A stretch of DNA of 64,000 bases from Alphaproteobacteria bacterium (GTDB lineage Bacteria; Pseudomonadota; Alphaproteobacteria; CAAHEQ01; UBA3637), in contig JAZLCE010000017.1 of the NCBI GenBank assembly GCA_045614025.1, positions 3,875-67,874 on the forward strand, written 5' to 3'. The notes under the pieces were generated by a model. That model searched no databases and was not told the origin of the DNA. It worked only from the letters and a program-made list of their open reading frames with translations. The translations under genes were made by a program, and so were the position numbers. The stretch's first letter is position 1. Every line of letters begins with the position of its first letter. Of this stretch, positions 3,875 to 57,500 are shown in pieces.

Positions 3875-4765
3875 ATGAAGAAAAAAACGAATTTAAATGG
3901 ATTATTAAAAACAGCATCTATTGCTTCGATTTTAACGGCAATTTTATTAATTGTTGTTAAAATTATTGCTTATCTTGTAACAGGATCTGTTTCAATTTTA
4001 TCTAGTTTATTTGATTCTATGCAAGATTTTATGACATCTGCTGTAAATTATGCGGCTGTGAAACATTCAACGCAACCTGCGGATAATGAACATCGGTTTG
4101 GTCATGGAAAGGCAGAAGGGATTGGATCTTTGGTTCAAGGTATTATTATTTTGGCTGCAGCGTTTTTCTTGCTAAAAGAATCTTTGGTGCGCTTTTTTGA
4201 AACTGAACCAATTAAAGAGATTTCTTTTGGTGTATGGATAACGGTTTTTTCTATTGTTGTTACAGTTATTTTGGTTCGCTTTCAATCATATGTAATTAAA
4301 AAAACAAATTCGTTATCAATTAAAGCAGATCAAGCTCATTATACTGGCGATATTTTAATGAATGTTGGTGTGATTGTTTCTATGGTTGCTGCTTATTATT
4401 TGGATCTTTATGTTATAGATGCACTTTTTGGTATTGGTGTTGCCGTTTATTTGTTTATTGTTGTTTTTGGTGTTGCAAAAGAAGCAATTTCTATGTTGAT
4501 GGATACTGAACTGGATAATTCGATTCGAGAATCTATTGAACAAGAAGCACTTTCTTATAAAGAAGTTCATTCTGTGCATGATTTAAAAACAAGAAAATCA
4601 GGAGATGTTATGTTCATTCAATTTTGTGTAAAAATGGATGATGATTTAACCCTTAAAAAGGCGCATGATATTGCTGATTTAATTGAAGAAGGGATTCAAA
4701 AAAAATATGCAGGAGCTCAAGTTTTCATTCATTTTGAGCCTGCATTAACAAAGGATGCAAAATGA
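3875..4765 (+). CDS. Cation diffusion facilitator family metal efflux transporter
   Basis: Six predicted TM segments and the CDF-like motif SLFDSMQDF..HRFGHGKAEG, followed by a cytoplasmic C-domain. Start taken at MKKKTNL. Confidence 0.75.
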   Translation: MKKKTNLNGLLKTASIASILTAILLIVVKIIAYLVTGSVSILSSLFDSMQDFMTSAVNYAAVKHSTQPADNEHRFGHGKAEGIGSLVQGIIILAAAFFLLKESLVRFFETEPIKEISFGVWITVFSIVVTVILVRFQSYVIKKTNSLSIKADQAHYTGDILMNVGVIVSMVAAYYLDLYVIDALFGIGVAVYLFIVVFGVAKEAISMLMDTELDNSIRESIEQEALSYKEVHSVHDLKTRKSGDVMFIQFCVKMDDDLTLKKAHDIADLIEEGIQKKYAGAQVFIHFEPALTKDAK

Positions 4766-6926: not shown

Positions 6927-9900
6927 CTAGAATCGAAGTTCTAATTTGATCATACCTGAGTGATCAACATATTCCTTCCTGAACGCCCCATTATATTCAA
7001 GTTTCAATGTTGTTCGATCATTAAGCTTGGTTTCAATGCCTGTTGAGATGCCAACACTCAAGCGATCAAGCGCTTCGCTGTTCACTGTGTAACTCGCACC
7101 ATTAGCAAGCGTGTTGAGCGCTGATACGTCATCGCTGATCACATCATACCCAACGTTAATGCCAACACTTGGTCGGATTTTACCCAAATCCCAAGCGGTT
7201 TTAATGCCCGCAATCGCCGTTAAGTAATCGCTTGTGGTGGCTTCAACCGTTGTTCCAAGCGTATCGGTATATCCTTCTTGTTTAACCGACAAGTAACGCA
7301 TACCAACTTCTGGCGTGATAATGGCATTTTGAAGTTTGATGTCATACCCCGTCATCACTTGAACGCCCCAAGAATCAACATCATAATTTGCTGTGCCTAC
7401 GTTTGAAAGAACTTGCTTTTCTTCATCATATTGACCGCGACTGAACGTTGCCAAGCCACTCATCCACCAAGCGTCTGGTTGATAATGCGCTGAGATAAAG
7501 CCTGTGTTTGTATCCACTTCTGTTCGGCGCAACTCTTCTTTTGCCGTTGTTTGACTGGTTGCATATCCAACTCCAAGTGTTAAAGCATCTGTTACTTTTG
7601 ATTGAACGCCCAAAACTCCACCTTGACTTCTGGCCTTAAAGCCATCTCCCATTGTGGACTTTGTTTTATCATAAAGCCCTTTAATATAAACTTTTGCTCT
7701 TGGTGTTTCTTCCCCACCCGAACGGCCAACTTTAGAGGATATATTATTTGAAGCCATTTGGGAAGAGATGATATGTAATTGGTTGAATAAGTTGGTGATT
7801 TGTGATTGATATATCGATCTATCTACGCCTTCTAATGCGTTCAAGGCTTTTTTTGCATTTAAAAAGACTCTCTTATCGTCAGATTGCAAAAGATTTAGAA
7901 GGTTTTCTTGAATATTAACAAAATCTTTATTTGTTGTATCATCAGATTTATTGAGCAAAGCTATTACAATATTAACTTCTGTGTTTAATAAGCCTAAATC
8001 TTCTTCTAAAAGTGCCGCTGCTTTTTTTGAAACAGAGTAAGAACCATCTTGCATATCAATGATATCTAATAGAGGATTTTCAATTAAAATCAATTCATTG
8101 TCTGAGTTAAATATTTTATAAACAGCGCCATTTTCTTTGATGCCATTTGTGAATTTAAGACTAAGTTTTGAATTTTCATCTCCTTCAATGTCGTCATATG
8201 ATAAAGTTCCATAATCTTCTAAACTGTTTAATGCAACTCTTAATGTTGAATCTTCGCCAAATTTAATCTTGTTAACAAAAACATTTTTATTGCTAATATC
8301 CAAAAGGGAACCATTTTGAATATCAAGATTATTAAAGTTAATTTTTTTTGCGTTCCCTGTTATATTCATATTATTTGAAACAACATTATTTGTGCCAGAT
8401 ATTTTATCCGATATATCTAAAGTTACGTTATTGAAAAAGAGATTCCCATTTCCAGTCAAGCTAGATAAAGAAATGTTTCCTTCGCCAATAATAGTTCCAG
8501 TATTAAGGATATTTTTATCAACTGTTATATTTTTAAGTGTTATATCAGCATTATTTGTTATTGCTGTATCTGCTGTTGTTTCTGAAATAATAACATTTTG
8601 AAGTGTGACGTGTCCTAATTGGTTATCTATAACCTTTTGGGCTCCTAAAATACTTAAATCTTTAATTGTAAGATTTGTATCTTCTTTATTTAATATAAAT
8701 AAATCATTTTCATTAGCATTAATTACGCTGTTTTTTGCATTGTTTGAAATTCCAAGAATTAATTTGTTGCCACTAGATAATGGTTCAAAAGTTTTCATTT
8801 TATCAATGGAATAAGTTGCAATAGTCCCATTTTTTGCCATTTTTAACGAGCTATTACCACCATAAGAAATCAAATACTCAAGAGGAGTTATATCATCTGA
8901 TAATTTATTGGCTTCAAAAATTAAATTTTTTCCTAATGTTGTTACCTTGTAGGTGTATGGTGATGTTGCTGTAAGTAAGTTTGTGCTTGTATTTTTAAAT
9001 GTTGCATTGCCATTTAAAATACTTGTTGTATAACTTATCTTGGGTGAAAAGCTTCCATTTTGATCTAATACTAAATTATCCACATAAGTGTTCAATAAAT
9101 CTGAATGCGATAGATTAAAATCAATTTCTGAAAACTCATAATTTGAGCCATTTAATGTTAGTTTGTCGGCTTTTAATGAGATTGATCCATCAGATTCCTT
9201 CATAAAATCGATATCAATTCCTAATTTTGCGCCATTTCCTTGTAAATTAGAAAATGAAATATTATCAATTTTTGAATTTTTTAAATCGATTATGTTACTA
9301 GAATCAATTTCATAAGCACCGGCATAGGTGTTTTGTTCTAATTTAATCAGGCTATCTTTAAATATAACTTTATTGATGCCATCGGTATTTGCAACATCAG
9401 TTTTGAGATTAAATGTGGCCCGTTCAATAGTATCACTTGTCAAAAGTTTGTTTTTTGCATCATAGGTGCCATATAAAATATTCCCATTGGTATCAAAACT
9501 CACATTTCCATCAGCATCAAATAAAGGGATTTTTATATCTGAAACAAAGGCAAGTTCTTTTTGTTTTTCATCTGGTGTATAAGCACCCAATAAAAGCGTT
9601 GATCCATCAAATGTTAAGTCGCTTGAAAATTCGAGTAATTGCTCAGTTGTATCTGTGGTTAAATACGAAAGTTGCGCACTTCCAGATACTGATACTTTAA
9701 GATTTTGTAAATTATCTCCATGAACGCGTAGTTCACCCCCAGTGATGGTATTGATTTTTGCAAAATTAAGTTTATCAACAGGAGCAATTGTCAGGCCATT
9801 ATTTTGGTTAAAATAGGAGGTGTTTGCATAAGAATTAATTGTTTTATCGCCAATTATAAGAACGCCACTCCCTGTTTTATTGATTGTTCCTCTGGATTGA

Positions 9901-10757
9901 GAAATGCCACTATCTAATATACCAATTTGATTATTTCCAAATTCAAAATTAACGGTCTTTTCATTCTGTATATCTTGTCCATTTTGTAATGTGTTATTAC
10001 GAATAGATGAGTTATCACTAAAAAGAAAAGAACCTTTAAAATTTATTGTTCCTGAATTATAAAAGCCGCCTCCTAATGCATAAGATCTTGTTGCATGAAC
10101 TTTATTCCCAATAACTATAGTATTTGAATTTTCTTCAAATGTTACAGTTTCTCTATAATTACTAAGAGCTCCACCAGAACCATATTCAGCGCCAGCTATA
10201 TTGTTTGCAAATATATTGATTGAGTTTTCAGCAAAAGTAATTATTCCATCATTGCTCTCAATTGCGCCACTGTCTGTTGACCGATTGTTTGTAAATATAG
10301 ATGTTCCTTTAAATTGAAGAGTGGCCTTATTTCCTTTATTTCTAATGGCGCCCCCCATGGCTTCTTCTGAATTTAAGATATTGCCAATAAATTTTACACC
10401 TCCATTAAACTCAACTTGGCCATAATTCATAATAGCGCCCCCAGATTCAAAGGCGGAATTATTTTTAAAAATAGCTAAATCATTAAATTTGATAATTCCA
10501 GTTGCATTATTTTTAATGGCACCACCATCTTGATTCCCAGCAGTTAAATTTTCAAATGTAACAACTTGATTATATTCTTTTTCACCCGTATTTTCTAATC
10601 TGGATTCTCCAGCCATAGAAAAGGAAGAAAAAGTTAGAGAAACAGATATCACCAAATTCAAAAGGAAGCATTTTTTTAGGATGTTGAGATATCGTTTTTT
10701 TAATTCACGTAATGTGGTTTTTGAATAATGTGACATGATGTCCCCCTCTAATGCCAT
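6927..10757 (-). CDS. Pmp-repeat autotransporter (1276 aa), complete
   Basis: N-terminal signal/TM, multiple GGAI..N / FxxN repeats, and a C-terminal beta-barrel ending ..KLELRF. Alternative start at 10736 (MSHYSK) has the better SD (GAGGGGGA). Confidence 0.85.
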   Translation of the reverse strand: MALEGDIMSHYSKTTLRELKKRYLNILKKCFLLNLVISVSLTFSSFSMAGESRLENTGEKEYNQVVTFENLTAGNQDGGAIKNNATGIIKFNDLAIFKNNSAFESGGAIMNYGQVEFNGGVKFIGNILNSEEAMGGAIRNKGNKATLQFKGTSIFTNNRSTDSGAIESNDGIITFAENSINIFANNIAGAEYGSGGALSNYRETVTFEENSNTIVIGNKVHATRSYALGGGFYNSGTINFKGSFLFSDNSSIRNNTLQNGQDIQNEKTVNFEFGNNQIGILDSGISQSRGTINKTGSGVLIIGDKTINSYANTSYFNQNNGLTIAPVDKLNFAKINTITGGELRVHGDNLQNLKVSVSGSAQLSYLTTDTTEQLLEFSSDLTFDGSTLLLGAYTPDEKQKELAFVSDIKIPLFDADGNVSFDTNGNILYGTYDAKNKLLTSDTIERATFNLKTDVANTDGINKVIFKDSLIKLEQNTYAGAYEIDSSNIIDLKNSKIDNISFSNLQGNGAKLGIDIDFMKESDGSISLKADKLTLNGSNYEFSEIDFNLSHSDLLNTYVDNLVLDQNGSFSPKISYTTSILNGNATFKNTSTNLLTATSPYTYKVTTLGKNLIFEANKLSDDITPLEYLISYGGNSSLKMAKNGTIATYSIDKMKTFEPLSSGNKLILGISNNAKNSVINANENDLFILNKEDTNLTIKDLSILGAQKVIDNQLGHVTLQNVIISETTADTAITNNADITLKNITVDKNILNTGTIIGEGNISLSSLTGNGNLFFNNVTLDISDKISGTNNVVSNNMNITGNAKKINFNNLDIQNGSLLDISNKNVFVNKIKFGEDSTLRVALNSLEDYGTLSYDDIEGDENSKLSLKFTNGIKENGAVYKIFNSDNELILIENPLLDIIDMQDGSYSVSKKAAALLEEDLGLLNTEVNIVIALLNKSDDTTNKDFVNIQENLLNLLQSDDKRVFLNAKKALNALEGVDRSIYQSQITNLFNQLHIISSQMASNNISSKVGRSGGEETPRAKVYIKGLYDKTKSTMGDGFKARSQGGVLGVQSKVTDALTLGVGYATSQTTAKEELRRTEVDTNTGFISAHYQPDAWWMSGLATFSRGQYDEEKQVLSNVGTANYDVDSWGVQVMTGYDIKLQNAIITPEVGMRYLSVKQEGYTDTLGTTVEATTSDYLTAIAGIKTAWDLGKIRPSVGINVGYDVISDDVSALNTLANGASYTVNSEALDRLSVGISTGIETKLNDRTTLKLEYNGAFRKEYVDHSGMIKLELRF

Positions 10758-14375: not shown

Positions 14376-15077
14376 TTAAATTTGATATTTAAATATCTCA
14401 TATAAGATTACACCTAGATTAAAAAACGAATTAATAAGAAATAAACTTAGCAACAACGTTATAGCTATTGCAATTTTTGATGCTGGTTCAGGTTTTTTGC
14501 CAAATTTATTCTCTTGTTGTTGGCCGGGGAGTACTCCAATTATAAAGTAGGCAAAAACAAAAATAATGTATGAAACAGTGCAAATTGGATTAATCAAAGC
14601 TAATGGATTTAATAATCCAAAAACAAAAAGGAAAATAAGAATGCTTAATGGGGTAGGGCATCCTAAATCATGAAATCTTCTGATTGTTAAAGTGAAAAGA
14701 GCAAATAAAACAATTAAAGATAAGCAGATGCAGATATAATTAATCCATGATACTTCAAATACAGGATTTAATAAAAAGAGAAGGGGTAAGCTTAAACTCC
14801 AAAAAGAAAAAAATTCAGATCGGTTAGCTCTTCCATTTATTGAAAAAAATTTTTTCCAACCTTCAAAATAAATTTGAAAAATATTTCTTGTTTTTTTTGT
14901 TGATATATTTTCTGATTCTTTAAAATCAGTTTCTTTAATAACTAGTTGTTCGGATATAGGCTCTTTAGATATTTTTTGATCAATTACTCTTGACTTTTTT
15001 GTTGTTTTCTTTTTAGACGTGGTTGTTGATTTTTTTTTCTTTTGAGTTGATTTAATTTCTTTTGATGGTTTAGTCAT
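14376..15077 (-). CDS. DUF805 family inner-membrane protein with Lys-rich N-terminal extension
   Basis: GRANRSEFF...TIRRFHDLG motif plus 4-5 TM segments. Confidence 0.65.
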   Translation of the reverse strand: MTKPSKEIKSTQKKKKSTTTSKKKTTKKSRVIDQKISKEPISEQLVIKETDFKESENISTKKTRNIFQIYFEGWKKFFSINGRANRSEFFSFWSLSLPLLFLLNPVFEVSWINYICICLSLIVLFALFTLTIRRFHDLGCPTPLSILIFLFVFGLLNPLALINPICTVSYIIFVFAYFIIGVLPGQQQENKFGKKPEPASKIAIAITLLLSLFLINSFFNLGVILYEIFKYQI

Positions 15078-15138
15078 TTAAGCCCCCATTTGTGTTATAT
15101 TTTTAATATAAAGAATGTTTGTTAAAATAACAAGAGAT

Positions 15139-15190: not shown

Positions 15191-16735
15191 TTAGTTTCTT
15201 TCAAGTAAATTTAATCCGTTAAAAATCGCTTTAATGCTTGCTTTTGTTGTTGAGCGATCAATTGCTCTTGCAATAACAGATTTAGATTGATTTGAAATGG
15301 TTATTGTTGCTAATGCATCAGAGGCAGCTTTATCTTCTGGTGTCATCATTTGTTGCTCATATTTTGCCACTTCAATTGCCACGCCTAATGCCAAAAATGC
15401 ATTAATACAAGCATTAATAGGACCATTCCCTTCGCCGGTTTTTTCAAAGATTTCGTCTTCTTTTTTATAAGAAAGTAAAAATTTTCCATCTTTAATTCTA
15501 TCAAAAGAAGAAAGCTGATAAGGCCCTTTAATATCGCAAAGATGTGTACGATAAAGTTTATCTAAATCTTTTGGTTTTAATTCACTTCTTTTTTCTTCAG
15601 CCATTTTTTTTGCGAAGGGCATTAAATATTCTGCTTCTTGAAGAGTGATTGGATAACCTAAATTTTGGAAGTTAGAAAAAAGAGCTGATTTGCCAGATTG
15701 GCTTGTGAATCCAATATGTTCACCATCATATCTTCCAATGAGTTTTGGATCAAAAGCAATATATTGACCTTTTTTTAATCCTTTGGTTTTGTTAGATCCA
15801 TCTTGATGAATTCCACTACGATGAGCCAATACATCAGAACCAATAACAGGGGCTTTTTCATAAATTTTAATGCCAGACATTTCGCTAACAAGCAAAGAAG
15901 TTTCTTGAATTTTTTCCATTTTAAGTGGTATGTTTACATTTTTATTATAAAGTGCAACAGCAACTTCTTGCATATTTGTGTTTCCTGCGCGTTCACCAAG
16001 CCCGTTGATTGTTGTTTCAAGTTGGGTTGCTCCTGCAAAATAGCTCATAGCCGTTGTGGCGGTTGCCATGCCAAGATCATTATGGCAATGAACAGAAATA
16101 ATGGCTTTATCCCCAATTCGATTATGAACGGCTTTTACCATGTCAGTAAAATCAGTTGGTAAATATCTTTCAACGGTGTTTGGCAAATTAATAACATCTG
16201 CGCCAGCATCAACAACTTTTTCAATAGCATCTACTACATCTGGTAAATTTTCAATACAATCTCCAAAATGTTCTACTGAAAATTCAACTTCAGCCTGAGG
16301 AAGCAATTCTTTTGCTTTTTTAACGGCTTTGACCGCCATTTTTGTAACGGTTTGAATATCTTTTTTAAGGACATGTTCTAATCCCAAAGGATTCATAGCA
16401 ATAAAAGTATGAATGCGTGGTTTTTTTGCAAATTTAACAGCGCTAACAGCTTTTTCAATGTCTTTTTCATTGGCTCTGGCTAAAACGCTGATAACAGTGT
16501 TTTCTGGTGCACGTTTAGCAAGGGCTTCACAAGCAATAAAATCCATTTCATCTGAAGCCGGAAAGCCAATTTCAATTCCTTGAACACCCAATGCAACCAA
16601 TTTATCAAAGATCACTTCTTTTTCAGTTAAGCTCCATGGATTTTTAAGAGCTTGGTTTCCATCTCTTAAAGTGACATCATAAAAAAATGGTTGGCGGGAA
16701 TTATTTGCGGAATTTGAATTGATATTTGTTTTCAT
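15191..16735 (-). CDS. leuA: 2-isopropylmalate synthase
   Basis: FYDVTLRDGNQAL, HCHNDLGMATA, GLGERAGN motifs and a C-terminal LeuA-type regulatory domain. No other leu genes are adjacent. Confidence 0.85.
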   Translation of the reverse strand: MKTNINSNSANNSRQPFFYDVTLRDGNQALKNPWSLTEKEVIFDKLVALGVQGIEIGFPASDEMDFIACEALAKRAPENTVISVLARANEKDIEKAVSAVKFAKKPRIHTFIAMNPLGLEHVLKKDIQTVTKMAVKAVKKAKELLPQAEVEFSVEHFGDCIENLPDVVDAIEKVVDAGADVINLPNTVERYLPTDFTDMVKAVHNRIGDKAIISVHCHNDLGMATATTAMSYFAGATQLETTINGLGERAGNTNMQEVAVALYNKNVNIPLKMEKIQETSLLVSEMSGIKIYEKAPVIGSDVLAHRSGIHQDGSNKTKGLKKGQYIAFDPKLIGRYDGEHIGFTSQSGKSALFSNFQNLGYPITLQEAEYLMPFAKKMAEEKRSELKPKDLDKLYRTHLCDIKGPYQLSSFDRIKDGKFLLSYKKEDEIFEKTGEGNGPINACINAFLALGVAIEVAKYEQQMMTPEDKAASDALATITISNQSKSVIARAIDRSTTKASIKAIFNGLNLLERN

Positions 16736-16761: not shown

Positions 16762-16790
16762 TAAAAAAAACACCCTCCTAAAAGGGTGTT
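16762..16790 (-). terminator. Leader (attenuator) terminator 27 nt upstream of the leuA ATG
   Basis: Minus-strand RNA: ACACCCT-TTTAGG-AGGGTGT followed by T8, located between the leader ORF and the leuA SD. Confidence 0.7.
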
Positions 16791-16813
16791 TAGAATAAAT
16801 TATTTATATAACA

Positions 16814-16885
16814 CTACCCTCTTAGGAAATGCGATTCATGTCCTAACAATAAGTTTGATAAAAGAAGTAGAGTTACATTTTTCAT
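16814..16885 (-). CDS. Candidate leucine leader peptide (23 aa)
   Basis: Translates as MKNVTLLLLSNLLLGHESHFLRG*, with 8 Leu codons including 4 consecutive. Its stop lies inside AGGGTAGTGT, which can pair with the 5' arm of the terminator. Confidence 0.55.
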   Translation of the reverse strand: MKNVTLLLLSNLLLGHESHFLRG

Positions 16886-16921
16886 ATTTTATGAAATATC
16901 ATTTTTCCTAGTAAATGTCAA

Positions 16922-42673: not shown

Positions 42674-42976
42674 ATGACAATTCTTTTGAAAACTCCAACA
42701 GAAGTGATGAAAGATGTTGCTTCGCGCGTCAAATCAAAGCGTTTGGCTCTTAATTTAACACAGGAAGGTATTTCGCTGCGTTCTGGTGTGAGCTTGGGAT
42801 CTTTAAAGCGTTTTGAATCAACAGGCCAAATTTCATTAGAATCTTTATTAAAGCTTGCTCATGCAGTTAATTCGCTTTCAGATTTTGAAGACTTATTTCA
42901 AACTGATATAAGTCAGGTAAGTTTATTTAACCAAAAATCAGACAATAAAGTTCGTCAAAGAGGAAAATTAAAATAA
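42674..42976 (+). CDS. hipB: XRE-family HTH antitoxin (HipB-like)
   Basis: HTH segment LNLTQEGISLRSGVSLGSLKRFE, directly upstream of hipA. Confidence 0.7.
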   Translation: MTILLKTPTEVMKDVASRVKSKRLALNLTQEGISLRSGVSLGSLKRFESTGQISLESLLKLAHAVNSLSDFEDLFQTDISQVSLFNQKSDNKVRQRGKLK

Positions 42977-42988
42977 AAAAGAGGGAAC

Positions 42989-44176
42989 ATGCGCTTAAAT
43001 GTTTATTTGAATGCTTATCAAAAAAGGAATTTTATTGGTGTTTTGGAGGGGAAAGATAAAATTTTATTTGAGTATGCCTCTTCTTTTATAAAAACGGGAA
43101 TTAATTTATCCCCTTTTATGTTGCCTTTAAAGGAGGGTGTTTTTTATGATAAAAAACAAACATTTGATGGTTTATTTGGCCTATTTAATGATTCGCTTCC
43201 TGATGGGTGGGGCTGTTTGTTGTTAGATAGATATTTGCAAAAGCAAGGTCTTTCATATTATGATATCACGCCATTACATCGTCTTTCAATTGTGGGGAAA
43301 GAAAGTTTAGGTGCGCTTGAATATGAACCGCAAGAATCGAATGATGAAGTTAAAATTGAAGAAATTGAATTAGATGAGCTTTCTTTGGGAGCGCATCAGA
43401 TTTTAGAAGGAGCGAGTTCTGATTTGTTGGATCATTTAAAGTCCTTAAATGGCTCAACAGCAGGAGCAAGACCAAAAATTACAGCACAAGTTTCTGATGA
43501 TTTTAAAATTATTCGAAGTGGAAGAACATATCAAAAAGGTTTTTCTCCTTGGATTATTAAATTTTCTTCTGACACGGATGAGCGAAATTTAGGGGCATTA
43601 GAATATATTTATTCATTAATGGCAAAAAAAGCCGGTGTTGAAATGCCTGAAACATATTTATTCCCTTCAAAAAATTCAGCAGGGCATTTTGCAACAAAGC
43701 GCTTTGATAGAGAGGGAAAAAATAAAATTCATATTCATAGTGCTTGTGGTCTTTTGCATGCATCACATCGCATTCCAACGTTAGATTATGAAAATTTAAT
43801 TCGATTAACCAGTCATTTAACTCATGATACAAGAGAAGTTGAAAAAATGGTCCGATTAATGTTTTTTAATGTTAAAGCTGGTAATAAGGATGATCATACA
43901 AAAAATTTTGCTTATATGATGACGAAAAATTATGAATGGAAAATGACTCCTGCTTTTGATATTACTCCCTCAAATGGGATTAACGGAGAACAAACAGCTA
44001 TGGTAAATGGAAAGGGAAGAAAAATTTTAAATGAAGATTTAATTGAAACGGCTAAAATATCGGGATTGCCATTGCAAAAAATAAAGCAAATACTTTCTGA
44101 AGTTGAAGAGGCTCTTTCTTTTTATCCTTTGCTTTTAAAAGAGTTTTTAGGTTATTCTGTTTTTCATTTAAAGTAA
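42989..44176 (+). CDS. hipA: Type II toxin HipA-family Ser/Thr kinase
   Basis: N-terminal coupling domain (LPDGWG), GARPK, and catalytic-loop GNKDDHTKNF. Confidence 0.85.
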   Translation: MRLNVYLNAYQKRNFIGVLEGKDKILFEYASSFIKTGINLSPFMLPLKEGVFYDKKQTFDGLFGLFNDSLPDGWGCLLLDRYLQKQGLSYYDITPLHRLSIVGKESLGALEYEPQESNDEVKIEEIELDELSLGAHQILEGASSDLLDHLKSLNGSTAGARPKITAQVSDDFKIIRSGRTYQKGFSPWIIKFSSDTDERNLGALEYIYSLMAKKAGVEMPETYLFPSKNSAGHFATKRFDREGKNKIHIHSACGLLHASHRIPTLDYENLIRLTSHLTHDTREVEKMVRLMFFNVKAGNKDDHTKNFAYMMTKNYEWKMTPAFDITPSNGINGEQTAMVNGKGRKILNEDLIETAKISGLPLQKIKQILSEVEEALSFYPLLLKEFLGYSVFHLK

Positions 44177-50071: not shown

Positions 50072-50100
50072 TTGACAATTTTGTTATTTTATGATATAAT
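50072..50100 (+). promoter_or_regulatory. Sigma70-like promoter of the helicase gene
   Basis: TTGACA-N17-TATAAT. The track ORF start (TTG at 50072) is actually the -35 box. Confidence 0.6.
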
Positions 50101-50125
50101 TGCAAAAATTTTAGAGGGGAATCAT

Positions 50126-52636
50126 ATGAAACAACAAAATTTTAATGCGCTTATTCATGGATTAAAAACTTTTTTACCAAGTGTTGATTTAAGGTCTGCA
50201 CAAAAAGATATTTTTGAAGAATTTTTATCAAGAACAGATGAAAATTTAACCAAAGGCTTTTTTGATCTTGCCACTGGTTTTGGCAAAACCAGAATGATGA
50301 ATGTTTTGACCGAGGGGTATTTATCTCAAAATCCAAAAGGAAAAGTTGTGGTTGTTGTGCCAACCCAAAGTTTGATTAAAGATGAAAATGGCGAGGGGAT
50401 GATTAAGCGCTTTCAAGATTTTCATCAAATGTATCATTCTGAACCATTAAGCATTGGTTCTTTTTATTCGTATGGTAAAGATACAACCAGCAATGTTATT
50501 GTAACAACTTATTCTTCACTCAATACCTTTGCTAACAACATTAACCCAAAAGAAGTTGGCCTTTTGTTGTTGGATGAAGCTCACCACTCATTGTCTGAAA
50601 AAAGAATGGATGCGATCAAAGAATTTTCAAATGCTTGTTGTTATGGTTTAACGGCAACGCCAGCTTATTCCCCAGATAAAAATTTGGAAAATTTGTTAGG
50701 TTCAGTTATTGCTGAAATGAATACGGTTCAAGCCGTAAAAGATGGATTGCTTACGCCTTGTAAAAATGTTTTGCTTTCATCTAAAATTAAGGTGGACTTG
50801 AGTTCTATTTCAAAAACAAGAACAGGTGAATATAATGAAGCCGAACTTGAAAAAGTGCTTTCTCAAGCTCTGAAATCTTATCAAGAAAATGGAAATGCAA
50901 AAAATTGGAAAAATGTGCATGAGTTAATTGCAAATGAAATTGCTATGTTTTATCAAAACTATGTGGATGAAACGGTTGGTAAAGTTCAAGGTAAAAAATG
51001 CATGATTAACTGTCGCTCTCAAGCAGAAGCAAAATTACAGGCCAGAGCGTTAAATAAATTGTTTGGGAAAACAGTTGCAGGTACTTGGACAACGGATACA
51101 AAAGATAAAACAATTTTGAATAAATTTGTGAATGGTGATTTACCTATTTTGTGCCAGGTTGGGAAACTCTCTGAAGGGTTTGATATGCCTAAATTGGATA
51201 TGTGTATCAACTATCCAACTTGTTCCAGAGTGGTTGAAGCACAACGTGGGGGGCGTGTTTTGCGTCTTAATCCAGAAAATGAAAATAAGTTTTCTCTGAT
51301 TGTGGATGTTGTTTTTGCGCATCCAGATTATGATAACCCAATTTTGTCTTCGCATACCAATGGGCAAGTGCTCTATCGTGATATTACAAATAAAAGTGTG
51401 ATGCTAAAAGATAAAAAGTTAGAGGATCGGGCGGGTGTTTTAAAAACACAAGAGAGAAAAGAGCGAGAGTCATCCAATCTATTACTTGAAGCTTTTGATA
51501 TTTTTTCCAATATTGAAGAGTTGATTACACTTGAAAATGAGGCAGATATTGAACTTAAAGATCAAAATCTTCCATTAAAAAGAGACGGGATGAAATCATC
51601 TCTTGATTTAAAACGTTTGTTAGGTAAAACCGATGTTTTTTACAAGAAACAGTTACAAAAATATTATGATGAAAATAGAACTTTTGAAGTTGATGGTGTC
51701 CAATATCCATTGGTAGAAAAAGTAAAGTCAGGATCGAAAATAGCCTTGGTTTTGCATGAACACAAAAATGCTCTTGAAACATTTAAAAAACTGTTGAAAA
51801 AAGATGGAAATGATCTTGATATTCCAGTAAAAAGAGACGGGATGAAATCTACTACAGAGTTAATTTTGTTGTTTAAAAAAAATGGTGCATTTTTTGCAGA
51901 AAAACTACAAAAATATTATGAAGAAAATAAAATGTTTGAGGTTGATGGGATTCAATATCCATTGGTAGAAAAAGTAAAGTCAGGATCGAAAATTGTATTG
52001 GCTTTGCATGAACATGAAAATGCATTAAAAGTATTCAAAAAGCTTTTATTAAGTAGTGTTTGTAACGTTCCTGAAAAAAGAAATGGTATGAAAACACGAT
52101 ATGATTTAGCCTTGATGTTGAATAGAAGTCGTTTCTTTTTTTCAAAATGGTTACAAAAATATTATAATGAAAATAGAATTTTTGAGGTTGATGGAGTTCA
52201 ATATCCGTTGGTTGAAAAAGTTAAATCAGGTGGGTGCATTACATTAGCTTTGTCTGAGCATACAAAGGCTTTTGAAATTTTTAAAAAACTTTTGGAAAAA
52301 GAGGGTCTTGTTTTTGATGTTCCTGCTAAAAGAAAGAAAATGAAATCCAGCTTTGATTTAACAATATTATTTCATAAAACAACAGCTTTTTTTCCAAGGT
52401 GGTTGCAAAAATATTATGATGAAAACAAAACTTTTGAGGTTGATGGAGTTCAATATCCATTGGTTGAAAAAGTTAAATCAGGTGGGGGCATTACATTAGC
52501 TCTTCATGAACATCCATTGGCACTTGAAACATTTAAAAAGTTATTAGAAAAAGATGGCATTGTTTTGAAAGAAAGAAAAATTGCTTCTCAAAAACAAAAT
52601 CTTTTACCCATTCAAAAGAAGCAAAAAAGGCGATAA
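50126..52636 (+). CDS. SF2 (ResIII/DEAH-type) helicase fused to four C-terminal tandem repeats
   Basis: Motifs I ATGFGKT, II LLLDEAHH, III GLTATP, VI QRGGRVLR. These are followed by 4 x 82-84 aa repeats. GAGGGG SD before the ATG at 50126. Confidence 0.8.
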   Translation: MKQQNFNALIHGLKTFLPSVDLRSAQKDIFEEFLSRTDENLTKGFFDLATGFGKTRMMNVLTEGYLSQNPKGKVVVVVPTQSLIKDENGEGMIKRFQDFHQMYHSEPLSIGSFYSYGKDTTSNVIVTTYSSLNTFANNINPKEVGLLLLDEAHHSLSEKRMDAIKEFSNACCYGLTATPAYSPDKNLENLLGSVIAEMNTVQAVKDGLLTPCKNVLLSSKIKVDLSSISKTRTGEYNEAELEKVLSQALKSYQENGNAKNWKNVHELIANEIAMFYQNYVDETVGKVQGKKCMINCRSQAEAKLQARALNKLFGKTVAGTWTTDTKDKTILNKFVNGDLPILCQVGKLSEGFDMPKLDMCINYPTCSRVVEAQRGGRVLRLNPENENKFSLIVDVVFAHPDYDNPILSSHTNGQVLYRDITNKSVMLKDKKLEDRAGVLKTQERKERESSNLLLEAFDIFSNIEELITLENEADIELKDQNLPLKRDGMKSSLDLKRLLGKTDVFYKKQLQKYYDENRTFEVDGVQYPLVEKVKSGSKIALVLHEHKNALETFKKLLKKDGNDLDIPVKRDGMKSTTELILLFKKNGAFFAEKLQKYYEENKMFEVDGIQYPLVEKVKSGSKIVLALHEHENALKVFKKLLLSSVCNVPEKRNGMKTRYDLALMLNRSRFFFSKWLQKYYNENRIFEVDGVQYPLVEKVKSGGCITLALSEHTKAFEIFKKLLEKEGLVFDVPAKRKKMKSSFDLTILFHKTTAFFPRWLQKYYDENKTFEVDGVQYPLVEKVKSGGGITLALHEHPLALETFKKLLEKDGIVLKERKIASQKQNLLPIQKKQKRR
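51572..52573 (+). repeat. Four in-frame tandem repeats (252/246/252/252 nt)
   Basis: Units start at 51572, 51824, 52070 and 52322. Consensus is P.KR.GMKS..DL..L....FF...LQKYY.EN..FEVDG.QYPLVEKVKSG..I.LALHEH..AL..FKKLL.K.G. The 69-nt core of units 3 and 4 differs at 2 positions. Confidence 0.9.
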
Positions 52637-57358: not shown

Positions 57359-57500
57359 CGCTTGTTCTGAGTGAAATTTCAGTTGAGATCCCATGATTAA
57401 AATGAGAAATATATAAAAAAATAATGAAATTAAAAAAAATACATGCTATGCTTTCTCAAAATCAAAGGCAAATTGTTTTAAATTTCGAAAGGAATTGTCC

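Follow-up and report, generated by a model that had tools for sequence, protein, structure and literature searches.

A conserved leucine-codon leader upstream of a solitary leuA gene in uncultured Alphaproteobacteria: a probable leaderless, ribosome-mediated attenuator

The leuA locus and its leader

In the current study, we describe a short leader region upstream of leuA, a gene for a LeuA2-type 2-isopropylmalate synthase, in a 64,000-nucleotide (nt) stretch of contig JAZLCE010000017.1 (assembly GCA_045614025.1, positions 3,875 to 67,874 of the forward strand) from an uncultured alphaproteobacterium. This whole stretch, which has a G+C content of 33%, is referred to as the window. The leader–leuA unit is read on the minus strand, with the leader lying between the parC terminator and a monocistronic leuA, and it combines a leucine-rich open reading frame (ORF) with an intrinsic terminator and an alternative, antiterminating pairing. 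Its features are given below in the order of transcription; counts out of ten refer to the set of orthologous loci defined in the next section, and minimum free energy is abbreviated MFE.

16978, minus strand: end of parC
16957 to 16928, minus strand: hairpin of the parC terminator, stem AAUAAUCCGCC / GGUGGAUUAUU, with a T run to 16923 (read from the sequence)
16921 to 16916, minus strand: leader -35 hexamer TTGACA (TTGACA, TTGACT or TTGCAT in 10/10 loci)
16898 to 16893, minus strand: leader -10 hexamer TATTTC, 17-nt spacer from the -35 hexamer, preceded by TGA (extended -10-like)
16885, minus strand: predicted transcription start, the A of the leader ATG (from promoter geometry)
16885 to 16814, minus strand: leader ORF, 23 codons plus UAG, translated as MKNVTLLLLSNLLLGHESHFLRG
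16870 to 16859, minus strand: Leu block A, codons 6–9 (CUA CUU CUU UUA), a strand that pairs with segment 2 (AAGAGGGUAG)
16852 to 16844, minus strand: Leu block B, codons 12–14 (UUA UUG UUA), overlapping segment 1b; its last two Leu are invariant in 10/10 loci
16849 to 16837, minus strand: segment 1b, UUGUUAGGACAUG, pairing with CAUUUCCUAAG of segment 2 in the MFE structure in 10/10 loci
16831 to 16806, minus strand: segment 2, the last five codons, the stop codon and 8 nt, pairing with segment 1 or 3 and including CCUAAGAGGG
16826 to 16813, minus strand: antiterminator strand proper, CCUAAGAGGGUAGU, spanning the stop codon and complementary to the terminator 5' arm and loop
16791 to 16768, minus strand: hairpin of the intrinsic terminator (attenuator), AAACACCCUU-UUAG-GAGGGUGUUU, 10 bp, with T8 at 16770 to 16763; fold -12.4 kcal/mol
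16789 to 16777, minus strand: segment 3, ACACCCUUUUAGG, terminator 5' arm and loop, with 13 pairs to segment 2 in the window sequence
16746 to 16742, minus strand: leuA Shine-Dalgarno motif AAGGA, 6 nt from the ATG (GGA or GGAG motif in 10/10 loci)
16735 to 15191, minus strand: leuA, LeuA2-type 2-isopropylmalate synthase, 514 aa (NF042434, 518 bits against a cutoff of 500)
15173 to 15140, minus strand: leuA terminator, 15-bp stem and T run, 18 nt past the stop codon (from the sequence)

The parC terminator, whose region gives only sub-threshold, terminator-like matches in Rfam, stops 1 nt ahead of the leader -35 hexamer. The leader promoter is of the sigma-70 type, with a gap of 7 nt between its -10 hexamer and the leader ATG. 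Eight of the 23 leader codons encode leucine (codons 6–9, 12–14 and 21; longest run, 4), the ORF has no Shine-Dalgarno motif, and its stop codon lies 22 nt before the start of the terminator hairpin; from the end of the T run to the leuA ATG at 16735 there are 27 nt. A first-pass annotation, made from the letters alone, had pointed to a 23-codon ORF with eight Leu codons, four of them in a row, and to a hairpin with U8 at 27 nt before leuA. All of this is present on the minus strand, with the trivial difference that eight T follow GGGTG and seven follow AGGGTGT. Since leuA is followed by a terminator of its own, leader and leuA form a monocistronic unit.

Conservation across orthologous loci

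The comparison set comprises ten distinct leader regions, including that of the window, with LeuA proteins 65–92% identical; the relatives are uncultured low-GC assemblies labelled "Alphaproteobacteria bacterium", and their loci were gathered by exact-protein look-up. One further locus (P0024) is uninformative, with only 55 nt upstream of the gene. Homologues of the window LeuA in metagenome assemblies are 64–92% identical to it and, where named, carry the same label; the window also holds a Gram-negative-type parC and a class A RNase P RNA. An exact-sequence look-up of the window LeuA itself gave no match, and a clade-alignment search of genome contigs and a single-protein search of metagenome contigs, both dominated by the universal HCHNDLGM/FSVEHFGD motifs, returned, among the matches listed, LeuA proteins of only 30–56% identity and no close relatives.

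The complete layout—promoter, ATG, Leu blocks, segment 2 and terminator—is retained in all ten loci, with the spacers between these parts scrambled. The stop codon sits in CCUAA(G/A)(A/G)GG… throughout and is separated by a non-conserved spacer of 21–24 nt from a hairpin with the consensus AAAC(A/G)CCCUUUUAGGAGGG(U/C)GUUU, which is followed by T7–9; the 20–29 nt from the terminator to the leuA ATG contain the Shine-Dalgarno motif of leuA. Mean pairwise identity differs accordingly from part to part:

ATG: 100%
terminator hairpin: 97%
-35 hexamer: 86%
segment 2: 82%
stop-to-hairpin spacer: 38%
hairpin to leuA ATG: 34%
7-nt gap between the -10 hexamer and the ATG: 27%

Conserved islands (82–100%) amid scrambled spacers (27–38%) are the signature of selection on the individual parts. 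The upstream neighbour varies across the set (parC in four loci, and elsewhere ADP-ribosylglycohydrolase, PTS EIIA, an unknown 654-aa gene, a divergent terC and another divergent gene), which indicates that the leader is tied to leuA, whatever gene lies next to it. From the ten leaders a covariance model (R1) was built, and it found exactly one copy per orthologous locus at 101–136 bits; the window copy scored 136.5 bits and the next best hit 30 bits. Beyond these, neither the window nor 33 loci gave a hit that rose above terminator-level noise, and thus no further copies of the kind that would point to a leucine regulon.

The public gene call at one of these loci (P0010, 534 aa; L173:4001-4060) starts upstream of the hairpin (4009-4037), the real leuA ATG lying at 4058; the call is over-extended, so that the attenuator is hidden inside a called coding sequence.

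Mutually exclusive RNA structures

The leader RNA folds better than its own shuffles (z = -3.1; 0 of 200 shuffles as good). When the leader was folded unmasked, a 1:2 compound helix together with the terminator was the MFE fold of all ten sequences; segment 2 (CAUUUCCUAAGAGGGUAGUGUU) has two partners in this compound helix, Leu block A (CUACUUCUU) and the codons of block B/Gly (UUGUUAGGA). The same consensus of 1:2 helix and terminator was independently recovered by RNAalifold. A stalled ribosome was modelled by masking the RNA up to a point 12 nt past the final Leu codon in block B, and with this mask, before segment 4 is made, a 2:3 helix forms in every sequence. Per-sequence folding puts this helix at -12.6 to -17.0 kcal/mol and the terminator at -12.4 to -13.9 kcal/mol, and after the addition of segment 4 to the masked leader the antiterminator is still the MFE structure in eight of the ten. 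Thus the antiterminator that the first-pass annotation had proposed, a segment around the leader stop codon that competes for the terminator 5' arm, pairs in all homologues once the Leu codons are masked, and the search for mutually exclusive structures that it had recommended yields a complete 1:2 / 2:3 / 3:4 scheme in silico.

Pair counts on a MAFFT alignment of the ten leaders agree with these folds. All terminator cells are paired, and a single compensatory change, A-U to G-C, is shared by two loci (L170 and L174); antiterminator cells are 93.8% paired, against 31–64% when the partner columns are slid; and cells of helix 1b:2a are 95.5% paired, with an A-U/G-U alternation that tracks synonymous UUA/UUG changes. 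The near-invariance of segment 3 is explicable by a three-way constraint, in that it has two pairing partners, segments 2 and 4, the former of which is itself coding.

The invariant AGGAGG formed by the terminator loop and 3' arm was also considered as a ribosome-binding site and rejected, there being no start codon at a usable distance.

Coding signal of the leader

In all ten loci the leader ORF has 22–23 codons and an open frame, with indels only in multiples of three. Each leader carries 6–11 Leu codons, and in the alignment Leu is invariant at positions 8, 9, 13 and 14; conservation of the Leu run in relatives, proposed earlier as a check on the reading, is therefore borne out in every orthologous leader as retention of both Leu blocks. 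In the leader frame, synonymous changes account for 36% of the codon pairs that differ among six gap-free sequences, compared with 14% and 18% in the alternative frames, and the Leu codons themselves swap synonymously (CUU/CUC/CUA and UUA/UUG). CUA and CUC, both rare Leu codons in the genome, together make up 29% of the leader Leu codons and 6% of those in the long ORFs of the window. Non-Leu residues at non-pairing positions have changed to Leu in close relatives (e.g., S10L, H16L and S18L in L081 and L084). On these indirect grounds we infer that the leader ORF is translated.

A different account of the same conservation would make the element a conditional terminator read by a protein, a tRNA or a small molecule, with the ORF a by-product of pyrimidine-rich pairing strands. 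Much of the ORF does double as pairing strands, its CUN/UUR Leu codons being complementary to the purine-rich segment 2, so that pairing could keep an apparent peptide without translation, and covariation cannot separate the two readings. However, no riboswitch, T-box or protein-binding leader family was matched in Rfam, and an RNA of ~120 nt built of simple helices offers no space for a ligand pocket. Nor does pairing account for an ATG held at a fixed promoter distance in 10/10 loci, for an open frame with indels in threes and its stop codon placed inside segment 2, for the in-frame excess of synonymous changes, or for the drift of non-pairing positions towards Leu. We consider a signal other than the ribosome improbable.

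The small ORF could also be imagined as a gene in its own right, one that encodes a hydrophobic micro-protein and has its own terminator, leuA being expressed separately. The leader peptide is indeed conserved and hydrophobic, and leader peptides can act in trans, as exemplified by peTrpL of Sinorhizobium meliloti (PMC7298713). Yet the 20–29 nt after the terminator cannot hold a leuA promoter, and the element is always found beside leuA, across five or more genomic contexts, and is absent from the rest of the 64 kb and of the flanking sequence in the relatives. The conserved C-terminal residues, moreover, are pairing positions, and across the loci the last leader codon uses all four Gly codons while keeping its GG doublet. 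A free-standing micro-protein gene is accordingly very improbable. The conserved C-terminus (H-F/L-L-R/K-G) had been considered as evidence of a functional or arrest peptide, and was set aside as independent evidence because every conserved residue falls on a pairing position.

A leaderless start

The geometry of the leader start is uniform: a -10 hexamer (TAnnnN) is followed by exactly 7 nt and then the ATG in 10/10 loci, the 17-nt spacer between the -35 and -10 hexamers is invariant, the -1/+1 dinucleotide is TA or CA (pyrimidine-A), and none of the ten 7-nt gaps contains a usable Shine-Dalgarno motif. Sigma-70 promoters prefer a start site in such a position and a Y-1/R+1 context. The fixed gap, the pyrimidine-A dinucleotide and the lack of a Shine-Dalgarno motif together make it likely that the leader is translated from a leaderless mRNA or one with a 1-nt leader, transcription probably starting at the A of the AUG. 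The suggestion that an ATG about 7 nt after a weak -10 hexamer and without a Shine-Dalgarno motif might be read leaderless has thus gained strong support from the comparison.

Precedents for such an arrangement exist. The trp attenuator RNA of S. meliloti starts with the trpL AUG, and ribosome profiling (Ribo-seq) shows that trpL is translated (PMC7298713, PMC10117765), while leaderless amino-acid-sensing upstream ORFs (uORFs) have been described in mycobacteria (bioRxiv 10.1101/834739).

In two relatives (L168:3851-3862 and L170:3845-3856), the -10 hexamer itself contains a further in-frame ATG (TACAATG and TAGAATG, respectively), 9 nt before the leader ATG; this ATG is probably unused, lying upstream of the predicted transcription start.

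Proposed mechanism

Taken together, these features very probably mark the element as a ribosome-mediated leader-peptide attenuator that sets leuA expression by the supply of charged tRNA-Leu. In the model that we favour, transcription would start with the A of the leader AUG or with the nucleotide before it, and the leader would be translated leaderless. With plentiful Leu-tRNA, the ribosome would reach the UAG and cover segment 2, the 3:4 terminator would form, and the polymerase would halt 27 nt before leuA; if no ribosome were loaded, segments 1a and 1b would pair with segment 2 and the terminator would again form. With Leu-tRNA scarce, the ribosome would stall on block A or B, blocking the 1:2 pairing and leaving segment 2 free to pair with segment 3 once the latter is transcribed, so that no terminator would form and leuA would be transcribed. 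We infer that the ribosome stalls on the Leu codons and that read-through depends on leucine.

The 20–29 nt between terminator and leuA leave no room for a separate leuA promoter, and in two loci (L170 and L174) the gene upstream of the leader is divergent; leuA would therefore be transcribed only by read-through from the leader promoter.

Several points have to be set against an attenuator. By itself, the leader ORF does not stand out statistically in a window so rich in A+T: among 463 small ATG ORFs of 15–40 codons, 23 (5%) have at least eight Leu codons, and 3 of the 23 also have a run of at least four, so that the weight of the argument must come from the comparison with relatives. One leader (L174) has only six Leu codons. 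The conservation of the peptide C-terminus can largely be explained by RNA pairing and is not independent evidence of translation. With segment 4 present, thermodynamics favours the terminator in two sequences (L170 and L174), so that read-through there would hinge on folding kinetics. Helix 1a:2b is only 67.5% paired across the set, albeit with C-G to A-U double changes at two positions. Strict covariation is sparse because the core hardly varies, amounting to one compensatory terminator pair in two sequences (possibly one event) and none in the antiterminator. The pair counts are, finally, biased in that the structures were first derived from the window sequence; they are consistent with the attenuator model and do not prove it.

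The frequency of Leu-rich small ORFs would favour a chance ORF beside an ordinary terminator or insulator hairpin without regulatory role. Against this stand the conservation of the whole module in ten loci with scrambled spacers, the conservation of the alternative pairing, and the absence in L170 and L174 of a co-directional upstream gene that would need a terminator there. By these comparative data, the chance ORF is effectively refuted already, and we give it next to no weight.

Relation to known leader families

The sequence and structural features by which leader-peptide attenuators are recognized can be traced in the element. A short ORF rich in cognate codons (6–11 Leu) precedes an isopropylmalate synthase gene; an intrinsic terminator lies between leader ORF and gene in 10/10 loci; an antiterminator exclusive with that terminator forms in silico in as many; and a 1:2 anti-antiterminator overlapping the Leu codons appears in 10/10 MFE folds and in the RNAalifold consensus. 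The promoter geometry without a Shine-Dalgarno motif that distinguishes leaderless leader peptides of the S. meliloti trpL type was likewise found in all ten.

No curated family, by contrast, covers the element. At gathering scores no Rfam leader family was matched, and at E values up to 10 there were 42 sub-threshold noise matches (e.g., Phe_leader at 17–21 bits against a gathering score of 55), among which Leu_leader, which we take to be RF00512, is not listed and the T-box model is absent. Since no curated RNA family covers it, the element is a candidate new Rfam leader family. The first-pass annotation had held that the layout mirrors enterobacterial leuL, and this stands for the mechanism and fails for membership of the Rfam Leu-leader family. 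Like leuL, the element has a short ORF with a Leu run that includes the rare CUA, a Rho-independent terminator just before leuA, and mutually exclusive 1:2, 2:3 and 3:4 pairings. It differs from leuL in showing no detectable sequence or structure homology with it, in preceding leuA alone where leuL precedes leuABCD, in being leaderless and without a Shine-Dalgarno motif, and in having its Leu codons in two blocks, each of which is also an anti-antiterminator strand.

A closer parallel in design is trpL/rnTrpL, upstream of trpE(G) in S. meliloti, where the host is also alphaproteobacterial, a single first-enzyme gene is controlled, and the transcript begins with the leader AUG and is leaderless (PMC7298713, PMC10117765, PMC6614838). 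That system senses Trp and is unrelated in sequence, and its trans-acting small RNA and peptide functions are demonstrated, whereas the element described here is not known to have any such function. The mycobacterial polycysteine uORFs are similarly leaderless, rich in one amino acid, and in control of biosynthetic genes, but they belong to Actinobacteria, sense Cys, and involve no canonical intrinsic terminator in their mechanism (bioRxiv 10.1101/834739).

Short ORFs with Leu runs stand immediately upstream of leuA in a distant set of loci from Bradyrhizobium, Haemophilus, Psychrobium, Planctomycetota and Fibrobacter. Leader ORFs of this kind upstream of leuA were reportedly predicted for Proteobacteria by Vitreschak et al. 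in 2004 (cited in PMC1262725), in agreement with these loci. The covariance model R1 gave no meaningful score on these distant leaders, whose sequences are unrelated to the element. In Fibrobacter, the LeuA2-type genes are 46–52% identical (L004:3760-3990, L005:3800-4000 and L006:3760-3990) and their leader ORFs read MNKILNLRLINLLGCASGARAGF, MRKNLNLRLLLCIAHGARF and MRKTLNLLLLLSIATEARF, respectively, each ending in a stop codon. These leaders share the leaderless geometry—TTGCCA, 17 nt, a -10 hexamer, 7 nt and ATG—and in two of them (L005 and L006) the leader ends in codons (CGAAGCGAGG) that mimic the 3' arm (CGAAGCGGG) of a GC-rich terminator. In Bradyrhizobium (L026, L030, L036, L037, L041 and others), conserved uORFs of ~40 codons lie about 90–110 nt upstream of leuA and end in PTLLLGGLLLLIGP or LLPTLLIGGLLLTCP before the stop codon; they differ from the element in their length, in being GC-rich, and in lacking an obvious U-tract terminator. 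The leuA uORFs of Planctomycetota/Pirellulales end in LLLRR before the stop codon (further loci are L009, L020, L022, L027 and L028). The uORFs of these last two groups are probably further Leu-leader families.

The LeuA2-type enzyme and its solitude

For the window LeuA, only the LeuA2-type model NF042434 passed its cutoff, the canonical LeuA models all remaining under theirs. Among solved structures in the PDB, the isopropylmalate synthase entries 4OV4/4OV9 are the closest (E = 7e-105), and the precomputed Pfam domains of LeuA homologues include PF00682 and PF08502, the latter being the C-terminal LeuA_dimer regulatory domain.

That leuA stands alone, with no leuBCD nearby, had been stated from the first and holds for the window, where no leu or ilv gene besides leuA was found in the 64 kb; in the relatives examined, leuBCD were not found out to a distance of about 4 kb from leuA. 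Because alphaproteobacterial leu genes are often scattered, the local solitude of leuA does not show that the pathway is absent. In the nearest outgroup locus with a readable context, from an uncultured bacterium (L001, 1518-5524; LeuA 56% identical), the LeuA2-type gene is the last of a leuC-leuB-leuA operon and has no leader ORF directly upstream; this operon supports a real role of the LeuA2-type enzyme in leucine synthesis.

Significance

The element is an instance of a textbook leuL/trpL-type mechanism; it challenges no existing concept and is not surprising to a specialist. Its value lies in providing a clean, compact (about 125 nt) and conserved example of attenuation in an uncultured, low-GC alphaproteobacterial lineage, in functionally tying the LeuA2-type synthase to leucine supply, and in adding comparative support for leader peptides translated from leaderless mRNAs, a design in which loading of the ribosome at the 5' end would couple the first ribosome tightly to RNA polymerase. 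The geometry in Fibrobacter suggests that the leaderless attenuator design is more general than the single characterized case of S. meliloti. There is also an annotation hazard, in that gene callers start leuA too early and so take in the attenuator (P0010 is a case), or would list the leader as a hypothetical protein.

A bolder interpretation, which we think unlikely, combines two readings. In the first, small-genome gut or rumen Alphaproteobacteria would lack leuBCD and keep the attenuator on an orphan synthase; if true, this would imply a leucine-linked role of 2-isopropylmalate beyond leucine synthesis, or a metabolic hand-off between community members. In the second, leaderless initiation would be integral to, and recurrent in, LeuA2-linked attenuators; an identical -10 / 7-nt / AUG geometry is seen in Alphaproteobacteria and Fibrobacter. 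The terminated RNA or peptide might also, as in S. meliloti, act in trans.

Neighbouring genes

Downstream of leuA lies a DUF805 gene (14376-15077, minus strand), with a promoter-like site of its own at 15105-15133 (minus strand) after the leuA terminator. DUF805 also follows leuA in those relatives of the parC context for which downstream sequence is available (L081, L166 and L173), and does not do so in other contexts. Farther away, a gene for a 1276-aa autotransporter with a C-terminal beta-domain (6927-10757, minus strand) stands amid genes that are otherwise housekeeping genes. In the distal part of the window, genes for a HipA-like kinase (42674-44176), a ResIII/DEAD helicase (50072-52636) and a Schlafen-group-3-like helicase (57495-59630) were found; a 100-aa ORF before the HipA-like kinase gene may form a toxin-antitoxin pair with it, and this part of the window may represent a defence or mobile-element neighbourhood.

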